Source: a virus
Virus record (IMG/VR): IMGVR_UViG_3300045988_009872
Length of the DNA: 41,918 bases
Direction: 5' to 3' (one strand)
Both the position numbers and the translations under genes were made by a program. The notes beneath the pieces are model-generated. The model was not told where the DNA came from. It did no database searches and worked only from the letters and a program-made list of their open reading frames with translations. Each line of letters begins with the position of its first letter. The stretch's first letter is position 1. Positions 74 through 38,545 of this stretch are shown piece after piece.

Positions 74-96
74 CATCTGCAATTCCATCTGCAATT
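74..96 (+). promoter_or_regulatory. two tandem CATCTGCAATT repeats (candidate integrase arm-type sites)
   Basis: CATCTGCAATT occurs at 74-84 and 86-96. The same motif occurs three more times at 41710-41743, beside the other att copy. Confidence 0.45.
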
Positions 97-416
97 TATT
101 TTTCGAACTTCCGCATGACGCTATTATAGACGCGCTCGTTTACAATTTTCAAGCTGTCCATCAGTTCGTCCATGATCTCCCACGCTTTGTCCGGCGAAAC
201 ATCTGCCACTGCGCGCAAAAAATCGCTGTCGCCGTATGTTTCGACGTTGACCGGCGCGGGTGCTGCGGAGTATGCCATTGGCAAAGCCCTCTCTCTGATG
301 CCGCTTTGCTGGCCACGGATGGCATACAGCACGGCAAGGCGCTCATAGTTTGTCCAGCTCGATTCTTCCGTTTCGAGGCGAGCTATCCAGCGATTGACCT
401 CATTCTCGTCGACCAT
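96..416 (-). CDS. hypothetical protein (106 aa)
   Basis: ORF track. It is the last gene of the minus-strand accessory cluster. No motif was recognised. Confidence 0.55.
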   Translation of the reverse strand: MVDENEVNRWIARLETEESSWTNYERLAVLYAIRGQQSGIRERALPMAYSAAPAPVNVETYGDSDFLRAVADVSPDKAWEIMDELMDSLKIVNERVYNSVMRKFEK

Positions 417-431
417 AGGGGCGCACCCCCT

Positions 432-839
432 TTAGCCCTCGATCGTGTCCATGCAACGCTGGATGGCTCTGCGGATGCTTTCGTCGTCGGCGTTGTCCAG
501 CATTTCCTGCAACTGGCGTTTCATGTTGTCGATGCCGCCGTCGCGGGAGTAGTGGCCACGGACGTAGTGCGTGCCGCGTCTCGCATTGGACATGTCACGG
601 TCATAAGCGCCGCGCATACCCGACTGCCAGTCTCCGTCGCGGGAATAGCGGCGAGAATAGTCTTCATCGCGGGAATAGCCGTCGTCCTCCAACATCTCGA
701 TTTTATCGATGTTTTTGATGGTGTCCGTCAGCTTGTGCGCAATTTCGAGATCGCCCGCGCCAAGCTCACCCTTACGTGCCAGCTCGTCGAGTTCGTCGCA
801 CAGCATATTACGCAGATCATACATTGCTTTCTTGCTCAT
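432..839 (-). CDS. hypothetical protein with helical N-terminus and Tyr/Ser/Arg/Asp-rich centre
   Basis: ORF 432..869 trimmed to the ATG at 839, which lies 7 nt after GGAG. The centre carries YSRD-type repeats. No family was recognised. Confidence 0.55.
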   Translation of the reverse strand: MSKKAMYDLRNMLCDELDELARKGELGAGDLEIAHKLTDTIKNIDKIEMLEDDGYSRDEDYSRRYSRDGDWQSGMRGAYDRDMSNARRGTHYVRGHYSRDGGIDNMKRQLQEMLDNADDESIRRAIQRCMDTIEG

Positions 840-852
840 GTCCATTCTCCTT

Positions 853-1275
853 TCACGCGATTCTCTCAACCGTCAGGTTCGAGTTGGCGAAGTTGACGGC
901 CTGATTGCTGGTGTTTTCCATTGCGACCGTCAGGAAGCAGCCTTTCGGGACGCAGACTTGCGCGGAAACGTAAATGTTAAAGTAGTTCCCTACCGCCGCA
1001 GGCGTGACAGTCGCCGTTGCACTGGTCAGCGGCTCTCCGTTAATGGCAAGCGCCGCCGTGATGGCCTCAACCGTGCCTCCGGTGGGAATAGCGATGTTGC
1101 CGCCAAAGGAGACCCTAAACAGAGCGCGGTTTTGATTGGTGAGGCCGCGCAGCGTGATTTGGCCGCTTCCTTCTCTATGCACAATACACGCTTTCCCGCT
1201 TACCGCTGTAGCATCCAAAGGAACGCTTTGATTTGACGCAACAGTTACAATGTTGTTATTTACATATTCTGCCAT
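853..1275 (-). CDS. hypothetical beta-rich protein, possibly BclA-C-terminal / DUF3992-like jelly-roll
   Basis: ORF trimmed to the ATG at 1275 (AAAGGAA upstream). It has an alternating beta-strand pattern and ends in NLTVERIA, as exosporium/appendage jelly-roll domains do. This is similarity by recollection only. Confidence 0.5.
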   Translation of the reverse strand: MAEYVNNNIVTVASNQSVPLDATAVSGKACIVHREGSGQITLRGLTNQNRALFRVSFGGNIAIPTGGTVEAITAALAINGEPLTSATATVTPAAVGNYFNIYVSAQVCVPKGCFLTVAMENTSNQAVNFANSNLTVERIA

Positions 1276-1280
1276 AAATA

Positions 1281-1946
1281 TCATTCCTTTCGTTTACAAA
1301 TTCTTTTTGGCTTTTCAAATATTTCCTCGCCCGTCCATCCTCTCGAATGTCTATGATATGCAAGCGCTCTATCAAAATTAAGCAAGTCGCACCACTCGGC
1401 TATTGTCTTGGAATCCCCTTTATAAGTAACATAAACATTGTCTCGCCTGTTTCTACATTGCCATTTATTGTTTATCCAACGACAATTTTCAGGGCAATAG
1501 CCTTTTTCATTGTCTTTTCTATCAAGCGATAAAGTTTCATTATACCCATTGGCTATCGCCCAATTATAAAAACAAGAAAAATCGTTTGCCCATTCGGAAC
1601 ATACCGAAACGCCCCTACCGCCATATCTGCCGAAGTCTTTTGAACTCTGATTATTGCATCGGCATTTCATGCCATGCCATATACGATAAAGACGCGTATT
1701 TTTCATTCCGTGCGTTTTATGCTTATCTCCAGATAGTTTACCGGCCATACATCCACAACTATTTATCCTCCGGTCTTTTAACTGGTCAGAACGAACGCGA
1801 ACATACTTTCCGCAATCACACTTACAAAGCCATCTTCTGGTGTCTTTGTTTATACTATATCCCTCTCGCTCATTTGCCGGAATGAAACGGACAACAGTTA
1901 AATAGTTTATGCGCTGGCCTGTGTAATCTACTTTTGGTGTTTTCAT
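1281..1946 (-). CDS. HNH_3-like / Zn-finger nuclease-like protein (homing-endonuclease-like)
   Basis: Motifs seen: CKCDCG...SCGC, RLYRIWHGMKCRC, YGGRGVSVCSEW and LDRKDNEKGYCPENCRW. RBS is GGAGGA. The gene lies in a visibly AT-rich island (about 1285-2230). Confidence 0.6.
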   Translation of the reverse strand: MKTPKVDYTGQRINYLTVVRFIPANEREGYSINKDTRRWLCKCDCGKYVRVRSDQLKDRRINSCGCMAGKLSGDKHKTHGMKNTRLYRIWHGMKCRCNNQSSKDFGRYGGRGVSVCSEWANDFSCFYNWAIANGYNETLSLDRKDNEKGYCPENCRWINNKWQCRNRRDNVYVTYKGDSKTIAEWCDLLNFDRALAYHRHSRGWTGEEIFEKPKRICKRKE

Positions 1947-1964
1947 AAGGTACGTCCTCCTACA

Positions 1965-1992
1965 ATAATTTAATTAAGCTTAATTAAATTAT
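1965..1992. promoter_or_regulatory. 28-bp perfect palindrome (operator) overlapping the -10 of the minus-strand promoter
   Basis: The sequence ATAATTTAATTAAG|CTTAATTAAATTAT is a perfect palindrome. A third half-site, CTTAATTAAATT, lies at 2034-2045. The minus-strand promoter is TTGAAA (2011-2016) -17- TATAAT (1988-1993). A plus-strand promoter candidate is TTGATT (2007-2012) -17- TAAACT (2030-2035). Confidence 0.6.
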
Positions 1993-2059
1993 ATCACACT
2001 TTTTTCTTGATTTCAAGAAATAATTGTGTTAAACTTAATTAAATTTTAGGAGGTGTGTT

Positions 2060-2221
2060 ATGGCCCAAAACGAACTAAAGAACAGAGCGCGTTTCTCTAC
2101 CACCATAAGCTTCGAGACAGAGCGAGCGCTAAAAGAGTATTCAAAGGAAACCGGTGTTCCAATTAGCAAAATTGTTGACAAAGCAATTCGCCAATATTTA
2201 GAAAGCAAAGGAAATACTTAA
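2060..2221 (+). CDS. ribbon-helix-helix (CopG/Arc-like) DNA-binding protein, 53 aa
   Basis: Below the ORF-track cutoff. RBS TAGGAGGTG at 2047-2055. Translation: MAQNELKNRARFSTTISFETERALKEYSKETGVPISKIVDKAIRQYLESKGNT. The beta-strand followed by two helices is typical of RHH proteins. Confidence 0.65.
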   Translation: MAQNELKNRARFSTTISFETERALKEYSKETGVPISKIVDKAIRQYLESKGNT

Positions 2222-2229
2222 AAAATACA

Positions 2230-2253
2230 GCGGCGAGGCAATAGCCCCGCCGC
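2230..2253 (-). terminator. intrinsic terminator between convergent genes
   Basis: Hairpin GCGGCGAGG / CCCCGCCGC. On the minus strand it is followed by TGTATTTTT. Confidence 0.6.
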
Positions 2254-2334
2254 GTTGTTGTCAGTATCGGCACGGGGCCGACCATCTCGGTAGCGTCACC
2301 GATATGGTGACCGAGAAGCTATGCTATGCAGTTG

Positions 2335-3069
2335 TCAGCAGCCGCAGCCCTGATTGCAGCCGCAGCCGCCGTAACCGCTGCCTGCCCACGGGTTACAGGT
2401 AATGTAGGCAGGCGAAGGGCACGGACGAAGCTGAGAGATCAGATAGTTGTTCTGCGCGGCCTGAGATGCCGCCAGCTTCAGATTCTGATTCTCGGTCTGG
2501 AGGTCGGACAGTTTGCTCTGCGTCAGGAAGTCGAGGATGGCGCGGCTGTTCTGGTTGTTCGCGTCAATAATGTCGCGCGTGGCGTTCTGTACGGTGTTGC
2601 GCGTGTCGCACGCCTGCGTCGCCATGTCGTAGCGCACCTGGGCGATAGCTGCACGGTTTTCGCAGCAACACTCAGCGGCCTGCATCTGCATGGCAGTCAA
2701 CTGCTGCATGAGAGCCGCCTGCTGGTTACTGCGGGAAAGCTCAGCCTGTGCAAAGCCGTTGGCCATTGCCATGTTGGTGCCGTTGACAAGCTGCGCCTGC
2801 TGGTAAAATCCGTCGCAAAGGCCCTGATTTACACTGTCGATCTTACGCTCGACATTAGCAAAATCAGAGGTCAGCACATAGCCATCGACCACGCCGCCGG
2901 AATTGCCAGCGTTGTTGCCCCAGCCGTTGCCGCCCCAGCCAAAGACGGCAAAAATGAGGAAGAGAATAATGAGCCATGCGCCGTCACCGCCCCAGCCGAA
3001 ACCGCCGCCGTTGTTGGTAGGCGAGACCGGCATGGTCAGCATGGGAGCGCCGCCATCGGAAAGAGACAT
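2335..3069 (-). CDS. membrane-anchored Gly/Trp-rich, Gln/Asn-rich, Cys-cluster protein
   Basis: YjcZ-like N-terminus GGGFGWGGDGAWLIILFLIFAVFGWGGNGWG. A long Q/N-rich helical region contains AECCCENR. The C-terminus is GSGYGGCGCNQGCGC. Confidence 0.7.
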   Translation of the reverse strand: MSLSDGGAPMLTMPVSPTNNGGGFGWGGDGAWLIILFLIFAVFGWGGNGWGNNAGNSGGVVDGYVLTSDFANVERKIDSVNQGLCDGFYQQAQLVNGTNMAMANGFAQAELSRSNQQAALMQQLTAMQMQAAECCCENRAAIAQVRYDMATQACDTRNTVQNATRDIIDANNQNSRAILDFLTQSKLSDLQTENQNLKLAASQAAQNNYLISQLRPCPSPAYITCNPWAGSGYGGCGCNQGCGC

Positions 3070-3173
3070 AGTATCACTCCTTTGAAAGATTTTTATTCAT
3101 CAAATCGTGGCCACGATGTTGATTTTGCCAAAAGTTGAACAAACACTTTGCTTAAATCTTGCTTAGACTTTGC

Positions 3174-3380
3174 TTATTGCATCAGACTTTGAAACTGCTT
3201 TGCCATCTGTTGCAGCTGGTTTAACTGCGCCTGAGAGAGCTTACCGCTCTGCAAAAGTTTTTCAACCTCCGCTTTGGGGTCACCATGAAAATTTGCCTTG
3301 AATTGCTGGAACTGCTGCAGCATCTGCATGAAGCCGTTCCCTCCGCCGAGCGCTCCGAAAAAGGGATTATTCATCGCCAT
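3174..3380 (-). CDS. small Gln-rich hypothetical protein
   Basis: ORF track. It overlaps the upstream gene end by 14 nt. Confidence 0.5.
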   Translation of the reverse strand: MAMNNPFFGALGGGNGFMQMLQQFQQFKANFHGDPKAEVEKLLQSGKLSQAQLNQLQQMAKQFQSLMQ

Positions 3381-3801
3381 CGTCCTCCTTGTGCTTCTTC
3401 TTGCCCTTTATTTCGCCCACAAGCGCCGCCAGACGGTCGAACTCATCGCGGGTGACAAACTTATCATCCATTTTTTTAGTATCATGAGGTTTGTTTTCAG
3501 CGTCTTCCGTGTAATTAAACGTCCTCATTGGAATAGGCGTGCCGCTTGCGTCTCGCTCCTTGATGTGGAAAACCATCGAGTTTGTTTCAAAGATAATTAC
3601 TCGAGAATTTGGGGCGACCATAAACCCATTTGCTTCTTCTTTTCCTCCGCTAATCCATACAACGCTTGTCTGCATTTGCTGCGGTTGAGCCGTTTGCGCA
3701 GGCATTTGTGGCTGCATCATCTGTTGCTGCCGCATCTGCATGAGGTTGTCCGGCATCGGCGGCGGATAATAGGGGTTGAAATAGGGATATGCCATGTTCA
3801 T
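3367..3801 (-). CDS. hypothetical protein with Pro/Gln/Met-rich N-terminus
   Basis: ORF track. It overlaps the upstream gene end by 4 nt (3798-3801). Confidence 0.55.
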   Translation of the reverse strand: MNMAYPYFNPYYPPPMPDNLMQMRQQQMMQPQMPAQTAQPQQMQTSVVWISGGKEEANGFMVAPNSRVIIFETNSMVFHIKERDASGTPIPMRTFNYTEDAENKPHDTKKMDDKFVTRDEFDRLAALVGEIKGKKKHKEDDGDE

Positions 3802-4181
3802 TCCTCCGTTTCTTTTACCCAGTAATAAAGCGGGATTTCGTTCTCACTGTTCCAGCTGTCGTAGATCGTCCCATCCTGCACGCACACTACATGTCCGGAG
3901 AGGGCGAGAATATACGTACCGTGCGGGTGGTCATCGGCAAACCTCCCGACCGTGTAGCAGTCCGGGCAAGTGTCCGGCATGATGTAGCGCCGATAGCCGA
4001 GAGACCGCAGATACGCGCCCCAACAGGCATTTGCATTGGGAAGATCGCCGTCTAAGTATCCCTGTATGCACAGAGCTAAATAGATCTCGCCCCAGTCTTT
4101 CCCGGTCGCCTTGCAAATCGCGCGCACGGTGCAGTCGCTGACGTTGCGTCCGTTTGGATTCGGGTTGAAATAGCTATACAT
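3798..4181 (-). CDS. hypothetical protein, possible papain-like Cys peptidase fold
   Basis: Trimmed to the ATG at 4181 (MYSYFNPNPNG). Candidate Cys/His/Asp triad: DCTVRAI, SGHVVCV, YDSW. The assignment is weak. Confidence 0.55.
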   Translation of the reverse strand: MYSYFNPNPNGRNVSDCTVRAICKATGKDWGEIYLALCIQGYLDGDLPNANACWGAYLRSLGYRRYIMPDTCPDCYTVGRFADDHPHGTYILALSGHVVCVQDGTIYDSWNSENEIPLYYWVKETEE

Positions 4182-4296
4182 GGAACATCTCCGCAAAGTA
4201 AACGTATGTTCTCAATTCGTCAGGGTCAGGAAAAAGCGCGAGAATGTCCATCGCCATTTGCTCGGTAAATCCACAAGCCAAAAGTCGTTCGTACAT
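4174..4296 (-). CDS. small hypothetical protein (40 aa)
   Basis: Below the track cutoff. RBS is AGAAGGTG. Its stop overlaps the next ATG by 8 nt. Translation: MYERLLACGFTEQMAMDILALFPDPDELRTYVYFAEMFHV. Confidence 0.4.
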   Translation of the reverse strand: MYERLLACGFTEQMAMDILALFPDPDELRTYVYFAEMFHV

Positions 4297-4353
4297 CTCG
4301 CGCACCTTCTTTCTTATTCTGTTTTTATGATGCCATAAAATTCGTTTGCCAAA

Positions 4354-4381
4354 TGGTCATCGTTTGGTCATTATTTGGTCA
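4354..4381. promoter_or_regulatory. three TGGTCA direct repeats with 11-bp period
   Basis: TGGTCA occurs at 4354, 4365 and 4376, between divergent transcription units. The helical phasing suggests regulator binding sites. Confidence 0.5.
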
Positions 4382-4402
4382 AAAAATATTTCAAAAAAGC
4401 TC

Positions 4403-4431
4403 TTGACATACCACGCATTGCGTGGTATTAT
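4403..4431 (+). promoter_or_regulatory. sigma-A-type promoter with operator palindrome in the spacer
   Basis: TTGACA (4403-4408), a 17-nt spacer, then TATTAT (4426-4431) preceded by TGG. The inverted repeat ACCACGCA-T-TGCGTGGT (4410-4426) fills the spacer. Confidence 0.7.
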
Positions 4432-4475
4432 AATCACGTAAACAAAAGAGGGCAACAGCCCAGGAGGATATAAAA

Positions 4476-4745
4476 ATGAAGCTTACCGATGGAAAGAAGA
4501 CCGTGGAGATCAAGATCCAGCGTTGGAACGGTTCCGGCTATGACCCTGATTGGAGCGCCGATTACTTTAACGCAGGCTCCCTCCCGTACGATGAAGAGAC
4601 CGACACCTACACCGTCGAAGATGTAGATTACTGCATCGAGACCGCGAACAAAACAAACGAAGACGGCGCTTGCGGCAAGTACGACGAGAACGGCGATCTT
4701 GTCCGCGACGAAGACATGTTCGTTTTTGTCGAGGAGCTGAATTAA
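4476..4745 (+). CDS. small very acidic protein (89 aa)
   Basis: RBS AGGAGG at 4462-4467. Hand count gives 23 Asp/Glu against 8 Lys/Arg. No family was recognised. Confidence 0.7.
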   Translation: MKLTDGKKTVEIKIQRWNGSGYDPDWSADYFNAGSLPYDEETDTYTVEDVDYCIETANKTNEDGACGKYDENGDLVRDEDMFVFVEELN

Positions 4746-4759
4746 AGGAGGAGTTTACC

Positions 4760-5137
4760 ATGACCGATAAGCAGTTTTACAGCATCTTTTCGGACGCGCT
4801 CTCGAACGAGGGCGCGCCCCGCGAAGCCTTTGTCTCCGATTGGGCCCTTAGTTCCATTTGGGACGACGATAATCAAGATGTTCCGGAGGAGCGTATTGCC
4901 GAGGTCGGTGGTATTTGGGATGTTGCTCATCTATCGATCTGCGACATCCGCCAGTATACGGGGCTGTCTCAGGCGAAATTTGCAACTCGCTTTTGCATCC
5001 CTCGCCGATCTATCGAGGACTGGGAGTCCGGTGCAAGGCACTGCCCCGACTATCTGCGGTTGTTGCTCGCACAGGCCGTTGGATTGTACAACGATCGTCG
5101 GTTTTGCGGCCAGATCAATTCTCGCCATGCGGACTAA
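4760..5137 (+). CDS. HTH (XRE/antitoxin-like) DNA-binding protein
   Basis: ORF 4670..5137 trimmed to the ATG at 4760, after AAAGGAGGAG. The HTH reads QYTGLSQAKFATRFCIPRRSIEDWESGARHCPDYLRLLL. Confidence 0.7.
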   Translation: MTDKQFYSIFSDALSNEGAPREAFVSDWALSSIWDDDNQDVPEERIAEVGGIWDVAHLSICDIRQYTGLSQAKFATRFCIPRRSIEDWESGARHCPDYLRLLLAQAVGLYNDRRFCGQINSRHAD

Positions 5138-5717
5138 AAAATGTGTAACCTGCGGCAAGATTTTTTCCACCGATCGCGCAGAGCAGGCGAAGTGCGAGGA
5201 CTGCCTTGCCGCATCCCGGTCAACCACCCTGCGCACGCGAACCTGCCACACCTGCGGGGCCAACTTCATCGGAGGGCCCAGAGCCAGCTACTGCCCAACC
5301 TGTCGGGCAGAGCGGCAGAAGGCCCAGAAGCAAAAGTACCGGGCCACCGGTTTTTCCCGGCATCTGGGAGATATCGATAACTGCGTGATCTGCGGTGGAG
5401 AGTATGTCATCCAATCTGGCTTGCAAAAGTATTGTCCAAAATGCGCCCCGGATGCCGTCCGCGAGATCGACCGCGCGCAGTCAAAAAACTGGAATACCGC
5501 ACACGATTACTACATAAAACGCCGCAAAAAATCCCGCAGCGGCGTAAAGGTCTGTGTTGTCTGCGGCCGGGAGATAGTGCCCGGTACCCCTACCGTCACC
5601 TGTTCCCCCGAGTGCGCCGCCGCCCACCGAAAAGAGGTTCAGAAACGCGCGGACGCCAAGCGCCGGAGCGGGACGAAATCAAAGCAAAACGAAGTCAAAA
5701 AAGAGAGCACCGATTAA
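5127..5717 (+). CDS. protein with four CxxC...CxxC zinc-ribbon units and a Lys/Arg-rich tail
   Basis: ORF 4830..5717 trimmed to the ATG at 5127, which overlaps the upstream gene end. Four pairs of CxxC motifs are present. Confidence 0.6.
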   Translation: MRTKKCVTCGKIFSTDRAEQAKCEDCLAASRSTTLRTRTCHTCGANFIGGPRASYCPTCRAERQKAQKQKYRATGFSRHLGDIDNCVICGGEYVIQSGLQKYCPKCAPDAVREIDRAQSKNWNTAHDYYIKRRKKSRSGVKVCVVCGREIVPGTPTVTCSPECAAAHRKEVQKRADAKRRSGTKSKQNEVKKESTD

Positions 5718-5731
5718 CCTCGGTGCTCTCT
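5702..5731. terminator. bidirectional terminator between convergent genes
   Basis: Perfect 12-bp stem AGAGAGCACCGA / TCGGTGCTCTCT. The flanking A6 on plus equals a U-tract on the minus strand. Confidence 0.7.
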
Positions 5732-5959
5732 TTGCCCATCCGCGATTTTTTTGTATGCTCGCCTGCGGCAGCGGTTGACCGCCTCCGGCGACAGGTGCAG
5801 CGCTGCACACACTTGCGCGTAGCTCTTGCGCCGCACGTCGCACTCGATAATGCACGCCGCCTCGTCCTGCGGCAGCTCGAAGGATAAGATATACGCCACG
5901 GCCCGCTTGGGGGCCATAGAGGATAATTGCGCGCGGATTGACCTGTGCTGACTGTCCAT
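5714..5959 (-). CDS. small sigma-70 region-4-like HTH protein
   Basis: The C-terminal 60 aa (ILSFELPQDEAACIIECDVRRKSYAQVCAALHLSPEAVNRCRRRAYKKI) resemble sigma region 4. The start is uncertain (ATG at 5959 or 5917) and neither has a good RBS. Confidence 0.5.
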   Translation of the reverse strand: MDSQHRSIRAQLSSMAPKRAVAYILSFELPQDEAACIIECDVRRKSYAQVCAALHLSPEAVNRCRRRAYKKIADGQREHRG

Positions 5960-6036
5960 GCCCGTGTAGGGCTTGCAGAGGCGCTTGCGCGTGGGCTTTC
6001 GCCGCCCGCTCCTTCCTGTGCCCGAATCGGACACCG

Positions 6037-6645
6037 TTATTTTGTTGCTCTCTGGATCATCGTCACGACTTCCTGCCGCGTGATAAGTCTCTGCGGCGCG
6101 CTGCCGTCCGTAATGCCAGCCGCCTTTGCCGCCGCCCAGTCCTTCGCCGCCCACGAAGAGACGGGCTTGGTGCCGAGCTGCGATAAATAGCTGTCCATCA
6201 TCTTGTTAAACGTTGCCTGATCCATGTACTCCTCCATTTCCGGCGGGTACTTCCCCGCCAAGATCATGCTCCCTGTGTATCGCATATGGTCGTCCCATTG
6301 AAAATGCGGCTTGTCGGGGAATTTCTTCCAGTCGCCCCCCCACGAAAAACCGACTTGCTTGCCGATCTGCCCGCAGCGGGCGAAGAACGACGGATCGTCG
6401 TACTCATGCCCCTTGACGTTTTTGCAGATGTCGAACGCCAGCCCCGCCTTAACGCCGTGGAACGTCGGCCTTGTCGCGTTTTTCGCCGCGTAGCCCATGC
6501 GCGCAAGATAGCGCTGATACTCGTCATCTCGCACCGTCTCCGTCACCAGAACCGGAAGCCCCGCTTCCTTGCAGAGGTCGAGGAAGATGACACAGTTTGC
6601 GCGCACGTCCGCCCGCAGGTCAGCAATGTCCCTACTGTGATACAT
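6037..6645 (-). CDS. endolysin: peptidase M15 (VanY / L-Ala-D-Glu peptidase-like) with SLH-like C-terminus
   Basis: ORF 6037..6846 trimmed to the ATG at 6645 (AAGGGTGA upstream). Motifs: GLAFDI, SWGGDW..FPDKPHFQ, and a C-terminal ITDGSAPQRLITRQEVVTMI. Confidence 0.85.
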   Translation of the reverse strand: MYHSRDIADLRADVRANCVIFLDLCKEAGLPVLVTETVRDDEYQRYLARMGYAAKNATRPTFHGVKAGLAFDICKNVKGHEYDDPSFFARCGQIGKQVGFSWGGDWKKFPDKPHFQWDDHMRYTGSMILAGKYPPEMEEYMDQATFNKMMDSYLSQLGTKPVSSWAAKDWAAAKAAGITDGSAPQRLITRQEVVTMIQRATK

Positions 6646-7115: not shown

Positions 7116-7414
7116 CCGACCGCCCCACTCAGCAGCCACGCGATAAACGCGCCCGCCAGCGCCGCGAGAGCCTTGTCGACCAAACTGTCCCAGCGTTTCC
7201 CCGCCTTGCCCGTGATGGTCTTCACGTCCTCCTTGATCTCCTTGACGTCGCCTTCCACGGTCTCTTGTTTTGTGGCCAAGACCTCGACCGACGTTACCAG
7301 CCTGTCGAGCGCCACCTGATGTTCTGTGAGTTCGTTGATTCGGTGCGTGTTGCTCTTGCACCTCGATTCGATAAGCGCAATTGCCGCGTCGTCATAATGC
7401 TTTGCATTATCCAT
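7112..7414 (-). CDS. xhlA: XhlA-like lysis-associated protein (coiled coil plus C-terminal TM)
   Basis: Architecture and position match PBSX XhlA. The C-terminus is LAALAGAFIAWLLSGAVG. Confidence 0.6.
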   Translation of the reverse strand: MDNAKHYDDAAIALIESRCKSNTHRINELTEHQVALDRLVTSVEVLATKQETVEGDVKEIKEDVKTITGKAGKRWDSLVDKALAALAGAFIAWLLSGAVG

Positions 7415-7438
7415 ATCCCGCTCCCTTTCTGCGGCGTA

Positions 7439-8239
7439 TTACACCGCCTTGAAATAATTCCCCACCAGCTCGTGCGGAAGGTATTGCAGCGTGATCTTGC
7501 CGCCTGCCTGCTCGCCCGTGCGCTCGCAGAGGTAAACCTTGCCGTCCTCGCCGTCGAGGTAATACTTGCCGTACTCGTACTCCATGCCGCGGCTCGCCGG
7601 GATGGGGTCATCCTGCGTGCCCGCGTGCTCGGCGTCGATGACCGCCCAGAGAGCGGGCGTCTTGTCCGGCGTTCGGTCGGCCTGAGATGTATGCGCCTGA
7701 CGACACTTGTACACCTTGCCGCCGTAGCTTCTGCGGTCGCCCTCAGCGTAATCTACGGGGTACGCCCATGCTGTGATGAGTTCCGGCACGCTCGCCGCCT
7801 CGCCGTCGCTCAGGCTGACCGCCGCCTGCTCGATAATGGGGCGCAGCTTCACCGCGCGAGCGTATGTGACCGGCTCACCCGCAAGGGCGGTGACGGTCGC
7901 TTTGGCGCTCTCGGTTTCCGTGGGCTTGCCCATCTTGATCGATACCGTGCCGTCGCGGTGGTCAGTGATGGCCCCCGACAGGCTGTACGCGCTGTTGTCC
8001 CACTCGTTGACGACTTCCTCGGTCTCGCCCGTGGGCTGGCCGTCGTTGTCGTATTTGGGAACGGTGTCGCGCTGTACGATGCTCCACGGCGTGTTGTCGG
8101 GCAGCAGCGCCGCCGCGTCCGTGGTGGTCATCGTCAAGCGGATGTTCTTCACCTCGCGCTCGTTCCATTCGCGGTCTTTTAGGATGCCCGTGATGGTCGC
8201 GGGGTACTCAGTGTTGTTGACTTTGATGTATGTTGCCAT
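7439..8239 (-). CDS. tail-fibre-associated protein with CBM5/12-like carbohydrate-binding motif
   Basis: GGKVYKCRQAHTSQADRTPDKTPALWAVI resembles a chitin-binding type-3 motif. A second, weaker copy lies near the C-terminus. Confidence 0.65.
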   Translation of the reverse strand: MATYIKVNNTEYPATITGILKDREWNEREVKNIRLTMTTTDAAALLPDNTPWSIVQRDTVPKYDNDGQPTGETEEVVNEWDNSAYSLSGAITDHRDGTVSIKMGKPTETESAKATVTALAGEPVTYARAVKLRPIIEQAAVSLSDGEAASVPELITAWAYPVDYAEGDRRSYGGKVYKCRQAHTSQADRTPDKTPALWAVIDAEHAGTQDDPIPASRGMEYEYGKYYLDGEDGKVYLCERTGEQAGGKITLQYLPHELVGNYFKAV

Positions 8240-25395: not shown

Positions 25396-25960
25396 TCATC
25401 ACCACCTCGCACTTTTATTTGCTACCAGCCCCCGCCCCTTGGCCTTACATAGCAGTCTTTACCCGCCCCGAGGGGCACATCTGGTGCGGCATTGCAGTCC
25501 TGCCCTGCTTTAGCGCTTCAGGGAAAGTCCCCGTCACTCGCTGTGGTCTCCCCTTACGGGGCACCTATGCCGTATATCTCCGCAACGAGCCGGTCGGCGC
25601 TCCGGCATCTCCAACAGCATGAGCATTTGCGTCCTCACGTCCGGGCGGAAGCTGCCTGTTCTGCCCTTCGTTGCGGTGCTGCCGTCTAAAACTGCCATCA
25701 CCATGCGCAATCACGGTGACGTGCTGGAACTCCGGTAGCGTAGTTTGTGGGCATGTCCCCGCTGGGCCACATCGTCGAGAGGTGCGCGGGGTCCTGTGCC
25801 GCATGAGAGGCGCGACCTCTCGGCCCTGATCGTGGGCTGCATCGTGCGTGCGGCAAATCGCGGGGGGGCGGTGTGAAAAGATAAAAAGCACCGCGCCCCG
25901 CTATGGCGCAGGAGGCTGAACGCCATAAATGAGAGAACCGCAAAGGCTTTTACACCTCTG
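25396..25960 (-). ncRNA. long GC-rich structured 5' leader / candidate ncRNA upstream of terS
   Basis: About 565 nt with no credible ORF. All three minus frames are open with Arg/Pro-rich translations. Stable hairpins lie at 25860-25901, 25903-25926 and 25550-25561 (GUAA tetraloop). Four GGCAG repeats are present. Confidence 0.5.
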
Positions 25961-27934: not shown

Positions 27935-28662
<728 letters not shown>

Positions 28663-28675
<13 letters not shown>

Positions 28676-38170: not shown

Positions 38171-38545
38171 AGCCCTCTTTGGGCAACTTCAAAGGAGGTG
38201 GTTTTCGTGACCAACCTTTTGATTTTGCCTGTTCCCTTCCTGCCGGGTCGCAACAGCGGTGCCAAAGCGCGTTAAACTGGCTAAATGTAGCAACTGATAC
38301 GGCGGAGCACTCAGTGAAGAGGTTAAAACTCACGGTGATATGCCAGTAATCATATCCCACCGTATCGGGTACTCCCGATTGCTTACCAGCGAGAAGGCAA
38401 TGCGCAGAACCAAAACTGCGAAAGTGGTAAGGCTCCAGAAGAACTTGTAGCACCATTGCAAGCGGCGAAAGCCTGCACGGAGTAAAGGGTAAACAAATTT
38501 GGACATTGGCCGGTGGGAATGGTGCTCCCACCGGTCTTATGTTTT
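38171..38545 (+). ncRNA. candidate ~375-nt structured RNA in the cI/cro intergenic region
   Basis: Promoter TTGACT (38136-38141) -17- TATACT (38159-38164). Terminator hairpin 38508-38536 followed by a T-rich tract. GAAA tetraloop hairpins at 38416-38427 and 38464-38473. Perfect hairpins at 38337-38356 and 38364-38379. Only a 22-codon ORF (38207-38275) follows an SD that is buried in a hairpin. Confidence 0.5.

Follow-up and report, generated by a model that had tools for sequence, protein, structure and literature searches.

The analysis of a 41,918-nt viral sequence (IMGVR_UViG_3300045988_009872; "the window" denotes this whole stretch) reveals a compact plus-strand operon at positions 4382-5733, in which three genes lie behind one promoter and ahead of one terminator. 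These encode, in order, an acidic protein of 89 amino acids (aa) from an unannotated family (gene 1, 4476-4745), a predicted helix-turn-helix (HTH) regulator of 125 aa (gene 2, 4760-5137) and a basic zinc-ribbon protein of 196 aa (gene 3, 5127-5717), so that a small gene is followed by an HTH gene within a single transcription unit. The phage is temperate and belongs to gut Clostridia; its plus strand carries genes for a tyrosine integrase (40705-41718), a lipoprotein and two HTH proteins, and the functions of replication, packaging, structure and lysis are encoded on the minus strand. The cassette was compared with about 185 related loci (numbered with the prefix L). As these loci are evolutionarily linked, the counts given below overstate the number of independent events and are not to be read as probabilities.

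The core promoter (4403-4431, plus strand) consists of a -35 box TTGACA at 4403-4408 and a -10 box TATTAT at 4426-4431, separated by a 17-nt spacer and complemented by an extended -10 TG at 4423-4424. This promoter had been proposed in a preliminary description of the sequence, and it is indeed present: by scoring consensus matches out of 12 plus the TG across 3700-6300, we found it to be the top site in that range (11/12 plus TG). Directly upstream of the -35 box lies an A/T-rich tract, AAAAAATATTTCAAAAAAG (4382-4399, plus strand), which looks like an UP element and may act as one; a comparable tract precedes the -35 box in every related promoter group. The spacer is filled by the perfect inverted repeat that had likewise been described, ACCACGCA-T-TGCGTGGT at 4410-4426. 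When the flanking T and A are included, its arms reach 9 bp, and the resulting putative operator palindrome, T-ACCACGCA-T-TGCGTGGT-A (4409-4427), overlaps the extended -10 element. Since the palindrome sits between the -35 and -10 boxes, it is not transcribed from the cassette promoter. Its perfect form, CCACGC-N3-GCGTGG, occurs once in the 41.9-kb window, at the cassette promoter; it is thus confined to the promoter of its own operon, which leaves the module unconnected to the lysis-lysogeny switch. The simplest reading of such a palindrome would be that it serves a dimeric protein as operator. Published promoters of anti-CRISPR (acr) and anti-CRISPR-associated (aca) operons have consensus -35 and -10 boxes with an inverted repeat within the core promoter (PMC9410906), and the near-consensus promoter of the window operon carries its inverted repeat in the same position.

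Two other explanations for sequences at this promoter were set aside. The Firmicutes SOS box has the form GAAC-N4-GTTC, and control by LexA was rejected because the palindrome is unlike it, a comparison that was not computed. On the opposite strand, a promoter-like site at 4455-4427 (TTGCCC-17-TATAAT, 10/12) has its -10 region in common with the cassette promoter and would read leftward across the operator; it was dismissed because, on inspection, its -35 box is not kept in the other groups. As a separate observation, the operator-bearing promoter is duplicated within one operon in L176, once before the acidic gene (3920-3960) and once before the next gene, which encodes a 116-aa protein (4345-4385).

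The arrangement of promoter and palindrome extends well beyond the window. A CCAC-N7-GTGG palindrome in the same promoter was found upstream of the HTH gene in 126 of the 131 loci of the HTH family, and the spacer holding the palindrome is 17 nt long in all related promoters listed. Among the loci that carry the acidic gene, CCAC-N7-GTGG is present in 30 of the 31 distinct upstream regions that are accompanied by the HTH gene versus none of the 48 that are not. By comparing the promoter groups, we found that the inner bases of both palindrome arms vary together with complementarity kept, yielding five perfectly symmetric variants whose inner triplets are GCA/TGC (window), CAA/TTG (L030 group), CAT/ATG (L008 and L176), CGA/TCG (L153) and CCA/TGG (L141). 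Two further operators are nearly symmetric, namely that of L059, with inner ACA/TGT and one outer mismatch, and that of L071, which reads CAC-TAA-T-TTA-GTG. The start of the recognition helix, read from the translations, also differs per operator type (PRRS, PTRT, PRRT, PKRT, PRRN and PVRN), a correspondence that is no more than suggestive.

The product of gene 2 combines an acidic three-helix N-terminal domain (residues 1-56) with a C-terminal HTH of the XRE/HigA2 type. Its score against HTH_3 was 20.6 bits, under the cut-off of 23, many of its homologues carry PF01381, and further matches were to phrog_25567 and, weakly, to MqsA and HigA-2. In the structural model (predicted local distance difference test, pLDDT, 88), the nearest structure to the HTH domain was the C-terminal domain of HigA2, with a root-mean-square deviation of 1.6 Å over 54 residues, followed by matches to Aca2, restriction-modification controller proteins, HipB and the 434 repressor; the likeness to Aca2 is a generic HTH fold match only, and the N-terminal three-helix domain had no structural match. 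Superposition of the model, together with PF01381 in the homologues, places gene 2 in the XRE/HTH_3 class of DNA-binding proteins, in keeping with the XRE/antitoxin-type HTH that had been assigned to the second gene.

The protein encoded by gene 1 contains exactly the 23 Asp/Glu and 8 Lys/Arg residues that had been counted before, corresponding to a net charge of -15.5 and an isoelectric point (pI) of 4.05. Its close homologues exceed 199 and none has a name; at 50% identity, the family forms 373 clusters, whose proteins are mostly 70-120 aa long with the domain at the N terminus. The acidity is kept across the family (pI below 4.5 in 94% of 225 members), and the invariant residues include T4, D5, W17, D25, D29, F31 and C53. 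The AlphaFold model, with a pLDDT of 96.9, is composed chiefly of beta strands. A comparison with anti-defence and DNA-mimic collections had been proposed for this protein, and it returned no match in PADLOC, Pfam, PHROGs or NCBIfam. The fold search of the PDB gave nothing below E = 3, the PDB sequence search gave no match, and the BFVD fold search recovered unnamed homologues only. A tblastn search of INPHARED phages and PLSDB plasmids was also without a match, to which the low-complexity filter may have contributed. The earlier characterization of the protein as DNA-mimic-like thus concerns its strong negative charge; because no likeness to solved mimics was found in fold or sequence, the term refers here to charge alone. 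In one cluster representative (P0240), viewed outside its genome, the acidic domain is fused to the same type of HTH. In P0187 and P0225, it is fused to DUF3849, a fusion that gives no functional information because DUF3849 is not mentioned in the literature examined, the polyvalent-protein paper included. The look-up of P0045 returned nothing, and P0250 (1577 aa, 9 "repeats") was ignored as a spurious repetitive match.

Gene 3 encodes a protein with 16 Cys residues in CxxC pairs, a charge of +21.7 and four zinc ribbons. Its reading frame overlaps the stop codon of the HTH gene by 11 nt, an indication of translational coupling, and the gap between genes 1 and 2 is 14 nt. Transcription would end at a convergent terminator hairpin (5700-5733) with a 14-bp perfect stem (-26.4 kcal/mol, z = -6.6), which holds the stop codons of both gene 3 and the convergent minus-strand gene. 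The operon had previously been taken to end at 5137, which proved too short, as the third gene (to 5717) and the terminator had been overlooked. The position of gene 3 homologues varies: they follow the HTH gene in the L030 group, precede it in L106, L135, L139 and L176, and precede the acidic gene in L073. The zinc-ribbon protein was considered as a partner or toxin of the acidic protein, an option that was set aside since each is found without the other.

Comparison of the loci further reveals that the gene between promoter and regulator is exchangeable. At least nine unrelated protein families were found between the same promoter and the HTH gene, of which the acidic family occupies this place in 77 loci. 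The other cargo comprises a pair of 68-aa and 109-aa proteins, small acidic proteins with lengths near 70, 71, 97 and 108 aa (L135 has a 157-aa form of one of them), proteins 148 and 185 aa long, and the zinc-ribbon protein. Five of the cargo families are small with a pI of about 4.1, and none of the families matched in Pfam or PHROGs. Conversely, the acidic gene pairs with other small regulators, each of which has its own palindrome in a 17-nt spacer. These are short XRE proteins in L011 and L065 and, in L175, a 64-aa protein that appears ribbon-helix-helix-like by eye and whose sole match is phrog_13890, of unknown function. In L071, the acidic-gene operon ends with a regulator (7245-7589) in which an HTH of the same type is fused to DarA_C (Pfam "Defence against restriction A C-terminal", E = 8e-13). 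The acidic gene occurs without the cassette HTH in about 50 loci; it stands alone in L028 and L052-58 and lies among same-strand, apparently early-region genes in other phages. Enrichment of neighbouring genes was not used as evidence because our own open reading frame calls were too noisy in GC-rich loci.

A further line of evidence comes from RNA units in the related loci. In 24 loci with the HTH gene, a solitary unit resembling a type I-C CRISPR repeat lies about 100-150 nt upstream of that gene (L105, L110-112, L130, L136, L137, L140 at 2860-2965, L144, L145, L147-150, L154 at 2790-2920, L155, L163-167 and L171-173). These units occupy, in place of a protein gene, the roughly 150 nt ahead of the HTH gene, and each consists of its own promoter, a GTCG-stem-loop-stem (often with an extra hairpin), the handle GTGGATTGAAAT, a further stretch of about 30-45 nt and a strong terminator. 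The GTCG-stem-loop-stem-GTGGATTGAAAT form is shared by type I-C CRISPR repeats, for example GTCGCTCCCTTCACAGGGAGCGTGGATTGAAAT (PMC4521832). In the 1.6 Mb of related loci searched, the 11-mer GTGGATTGAAAT occurs 29 times versus about 0.8 expected by chance, in at least four unrelated sequence contexts. Further units with the type I-C handle, mutually unrelated in sequence, are located at L011:1895-2030, L028:8190-8330 and L090:9140-9300 and, on the minus strand, at L176:940-1060 and L008:2960-3080. The unit of L011 lies 0.2 kb upstream of the acidic gene, and in L028, L090, L008 and L176 the distance to an acidic-family gene is 2-3 kb. In L090, two degenerate repeats adjoin each other, and the L008 and L176 units have the handle and terminator with no obvious stem. 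None of the repeat-like units had an Rfam match. Solitary repeat units downstream of phage promoters have been reported as RNA anti-CRISPRs that cluster with acr genes, and RacrIC1 lies on the same transcript as AcrIC5 (PMC10651486). This form is found in the 24 sister loci and in L011, L028 and L090, and not in the window, and we regard these units as candidate RNA anti-CRISPRs. They could instead be regulatory RNAs resembling CRISPR RNA, of the sort described in a preprint (bioRxiv 10.1101/2024.10.29.618823); either reading would imply action against CRISPR.

Taken together, these observations are consistent with 4382-5733 being a self-contained, autorepressed accessory operon of the acr-aca type whose payload is a candidate defence inhibitor, a reading to which we give roughly even chances as a whole. 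Under it, the host RNA polymerase would fire the near-consensus promoter upon DNA entry with no need for a phage factor, and the operon would yield the acidic 89-aa payload, then the HTH protein and then the basic zinc-ribbon protein. Accumulating HTH protein would bind the palindrome in the spacer, presumably in dimeric form, and shut the promoter off, so that expression would pulse at entry and stay low and autoregulated in the lysogen. The hairpin at 5700-5733 would stop transcription from entering the convergent lysis operon, and the payload would bind and block a host defence protein or another DNA-handling host protein. Repression by the HTH protein, the timing of expression and the roles of the acidic and zinc-ribbon proteins are all features that we infer from the sequence. 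Our confidence is high for the predicted regulatory architecture, moderate for a putative anti-defence role and lower for an anti-CRISPR role specifically, with type I-C CRISPR-Cas as what would be the best-supported candidate target of the payload. The acr/aca-like layout put forward in the preliminary description is thus supported as an architecture by the 126 of 131 loci, the covarying palindrome, the swapped cargo and the type I-C-like units.

Several findings weigh against this accessory-operon reading. The acidic protein is unlike any solved anti-CRISPR or DNA mimic (Acr, Ocr, ArdA, Ugi) in either fold or sequence, and no Aca protein appeared among the PDB sequence matches of the HTH protein at E <= 1, a comparison with those Aca proteins that have a solved structure. 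The nearest structural relative of the HTH domain is the antitoxin of a toxin-antitoxin system. The window itself has no repeat-like unit, and the one match with a single mismatch that it contains is at chance level and lies inside a coding gene. The reading offers no explanation for the zinc-ribbon protein. The cassette also lies on the strand of the integrase and lysogeny genes and at the prophage end, a location equally typical of lysogenic-conversion genes that serve other roles.

The closest parallels are the Aca operons (Aca1, Aca2 and others; PMC9410906, PMC6765145, PMC13551039), which likewise have small cargo genes placed before an HTH gene of the same operon, near-consensus boxes with an inverted repeat in the core promoter, and a regulator family associated with many unrelated cargo genes. 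The window differs from them in that a novel acidic three-helix domain precedes its HTH, which is C-terminal, and in that no sequence relation to an Aca protein in the PDB was detectable; in addition, it has one palindrome rather than two, a zinc-ribbon gene after the regulator and a host among the gut Clostridia. The resemblance to RacrIC1-AcrIC5 and other RNA anti-CRISPRs (PMC10651486) lies in the solitary I-C repeat-like unit before the HTH gene of the 24 sister loci, whereas the window lacks such a unit and the units of the sister loci often have an extra hairpin. In the bifunctional Acr-Aca proteins AcrIIA1 and AcrIIA15 (PMC10901769), HTH and inhibitor form one protein, as the acidic domain and HTH do in P0240; the domain order of P0240 is reversed, however, there is no relation by sequence or fold, and the two are separate genes in the window. 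With Ocr, ArdA, Ugi, AcrIIA4 and AcrIC5, the acidic protein shares small size, strong negative charge and conservation of that charge within the family, but it has no fold or sequence match to solved structures.

A more far-reaching proposal is that the frame of promoter, operator and HTH gene serves as a portable counter-defence platform in phages of gut Clostridia, with the acidic protein as a new type I-C inhibitor and at least eight other unannotated cargo families, the zinc-ribbon protein and the RNA units as further inhibitors; this we advance tentatively, as somewhat less than an even prospect.

The placement of the cassette in different genomes bears on whether it is instead a moron for lysogenic conversion that serves host physiology or phage exclusion rather than anti-defence and in which the HTH protein is merely a local regulator. 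The cassette is found with its own promoter and terminator between phage modules, with flanks that vary among related phages, as is usual for morons. In the window, it runs opposite to the late genes and on the strand of the integrase, the repressor-like HTH genes and the lipoprotein gene. L176 and L178-182 have the same layout, in which the lysis genes and a gene resembling sigma-70 region 4 meet the plus-strand cassette, followed by six to eight small minus-strand genes and the integrase, so that the cassette lies between the lysis genes and the integrase region. In L184/L185, the acidic and HTH genes form the last element of the integrated prophage, and the 3' end of the host transfer-messenger RNA gene (the ssrA attachment site) is 170 nt away. 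In L001-L006, phages with different portals, the early genes lie to one side of the pair and the small terminase gene to the other, a position that argues against a conversion gene, and in L174/L175 the acidic gene adjoins resolvase and Rep3 genes. As its positions differ among genomes, the unit moves between genomes and sites, and it does so with its own promoter and terminator. Inspection of the translations, made without a prediction tool, revealed no signal peptide or membrane segment in any of the three products, the payloads in the same frame are mostly tiny acidic proteins, and 24 loci have the CRISPR-repeat-like RNA before the HTH gene. We therefore consider a moron unrelated to defence unlikely, while noting that a moron as such is compatible with the accessory-operon reading, as prophage anti-CRISPR loci are also morons.

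The charge of the acidic protein, -15.5 over 89 residues and conserved in the family, raises another possibility, that of a host-takeover factor or antirepressor whose target is a DNA-binding protein outside the defence systems, for instance RNA polymerase, a repair enzyme, a nucleoid protein or the repressor of a phage. The small acidic phage proteins Ugi, p56 and Gp46 act by binding DNA-handling proteins, and the family is found among the early genes of other phages (L009, L015, L079 and others). The acidic protein nevertheless has no fold likeness to solved inhibitors of that sort, the operator is unique to its own promoter and is not wired into the lysis-lysogeny switch, and the nearby type I-C repeat-like units speak for CRISPR, so that we judge a takeover factor to be quite improbable.

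A toxin-antitoxin pair of the HigBA2 or MqsRA kind, with the small protein as toxin and the HTH protein as antitoxin and autorepressor, would fit the gene order (a small protein, then an N-terminal extension with a C-terminal XRE HTH), the palindrome within the promoter, the nearest structures (HigA2 antitoxin C-terminal domain and HigBA2) and the weak MqsA and HigA-2 sequence matches, but it is very improbable given that the upstream protein is extremely acidic and has no RelE, MqsR or other toxin fold, that the acidic gene lacks this HTH in about 50 loci, and that the HTH gene lies behind at least nine unrelated first genes or directly behind an RNA unit. The constant company of a RelE/MqsR-type toxin that such an antitoxin would keep was not found: the two genes need not go together, and the cargo varies. 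In HigA2, the N-terminal region that binds the toxin is disordered.

Upstream of the operon lie three TGGTCA direct repeats with a period of 11 bp (4354-4359, 4365-4370 and 4376-4381, plus strand), which the preliminary description had offered as a second regulatory input. The repeats are real and non-random: of 200 shuffled versions of the window, 1 contained a hexamer tripled at a period of 11. They are restricted to the closest relatives of the window and are missing from cassette copies in other contexts, namely beside host DNA (L184), beside a terminator hairpin (L026 and L048) and in L001, and they are therefore outside the mobile cassette; they would be at most a putative second input. 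Repeats at the same place and phase with another spelling occur as ACGTCA (three copies) in L008/L176 and as TGCCCT (two copies) in the L030 group. The minus-strand genes resume beyond the operon (96-4305), and since a second array, three copies of CTTTGCTTA with a period of 11 at 3146-3178, is located upstream of the leftward gene 2335-3069, it may be the divergent leftward genes to which the phased repeats belong. A perfect 14-bp palindrome, ATCGTGGCCACGAT (3104-3117), adjoins the second array and may mark another regulated promoter.

The operon's 5' untranslated region (UTR) contains a GC hairpin, GGGC-AACA-GCCC (4450-4461, plus strand), that abuts the Shine-Dalgarno sequence AGGAGG (4462-4467). 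The 5' UTRs of all eight diverse relatives compared fold into a hairpin of 3-6 bp upstream of the Shine-Dalgarno sequence, abutting it in most, with stems that vary (GGGC/GCCC, GCCGC/GCGGC, GGC/GCC and GAGGU/ACCUC). These hairpins derive from single-sequence folds; alignment with MAFFT followed by RNAalifold misaligned them and predicted no pairs. Aca2 has been reported to bind a structured 5' UTR (PMC13551039), and no link was found between the UTR hairpin of the window and its HTH protein.

The operon had been placed just past the lysis cassette; a small minus-strand gene resembling sigma-70 region 4 (5714-5959/6154) intervenes between the M15 endolysin gene and the operon. A small gene located behind the endolysin gene and convergent with the cassette is a constant feature (window 5714-5959, minus strand; L176:5762-5962; L178:6283-6486; L179:5705-5953). 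Its product is similar to sigma-70 region 4 or GerE in the window and L176 and is a possible phage transcription factor. On the other side, a conserved block of small minus-strand genes separates the cassette from the integrase (window 96-4305; L175:4482-5658; L176:1159-3833; L178:1433-4809). Among its products are proteins rich in Q, P and M, a membrane protein whose tail is Cys-rich (phrog_16490), phrog_21718 and phrog_3754, as well as an HNH endonuclease (1281-1946) and, in relatives, DUF7841; the composition recalls spore-coat proteins. Elsewhere in the window, two Rfam matches exceeded the gathering score, FuFi-1 RNA at 38382-38540 (plus strand, 122.8 bits) and skipping-rope RNA at 25581-25675 (minus strand, 45.2 bits), and a 246-aa protein encoded at 27935-28675 (minus strand) consists over its first ~90 residues almost entirely of G/S/Y/D repeats (GSGYGDG).

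To our knowledge, the characterized anti-CRISPR regulators and inhibitors come almost all from Proteobacteria and a few Firmicutes pathogens, with very few for gut Clostridia. If the payload proved unrelated to defence, the operon would still be a clear cargo-swapping, autoregulated moron, and its frame a compact, self-limiting expression module. If the anti-defence interpretation is true, the cassette would add a regulator family that is new and whose operator code can be read (CCAC-N7-GTGG plus matching inner triplets), about ten candidate inhibitor families, one of them with a new fold, and a set of RNAs that mimic type I-C repeats. The HTH family would then provide an anchor for the discovery of anti-defence genes in a clade for which almost none are known.

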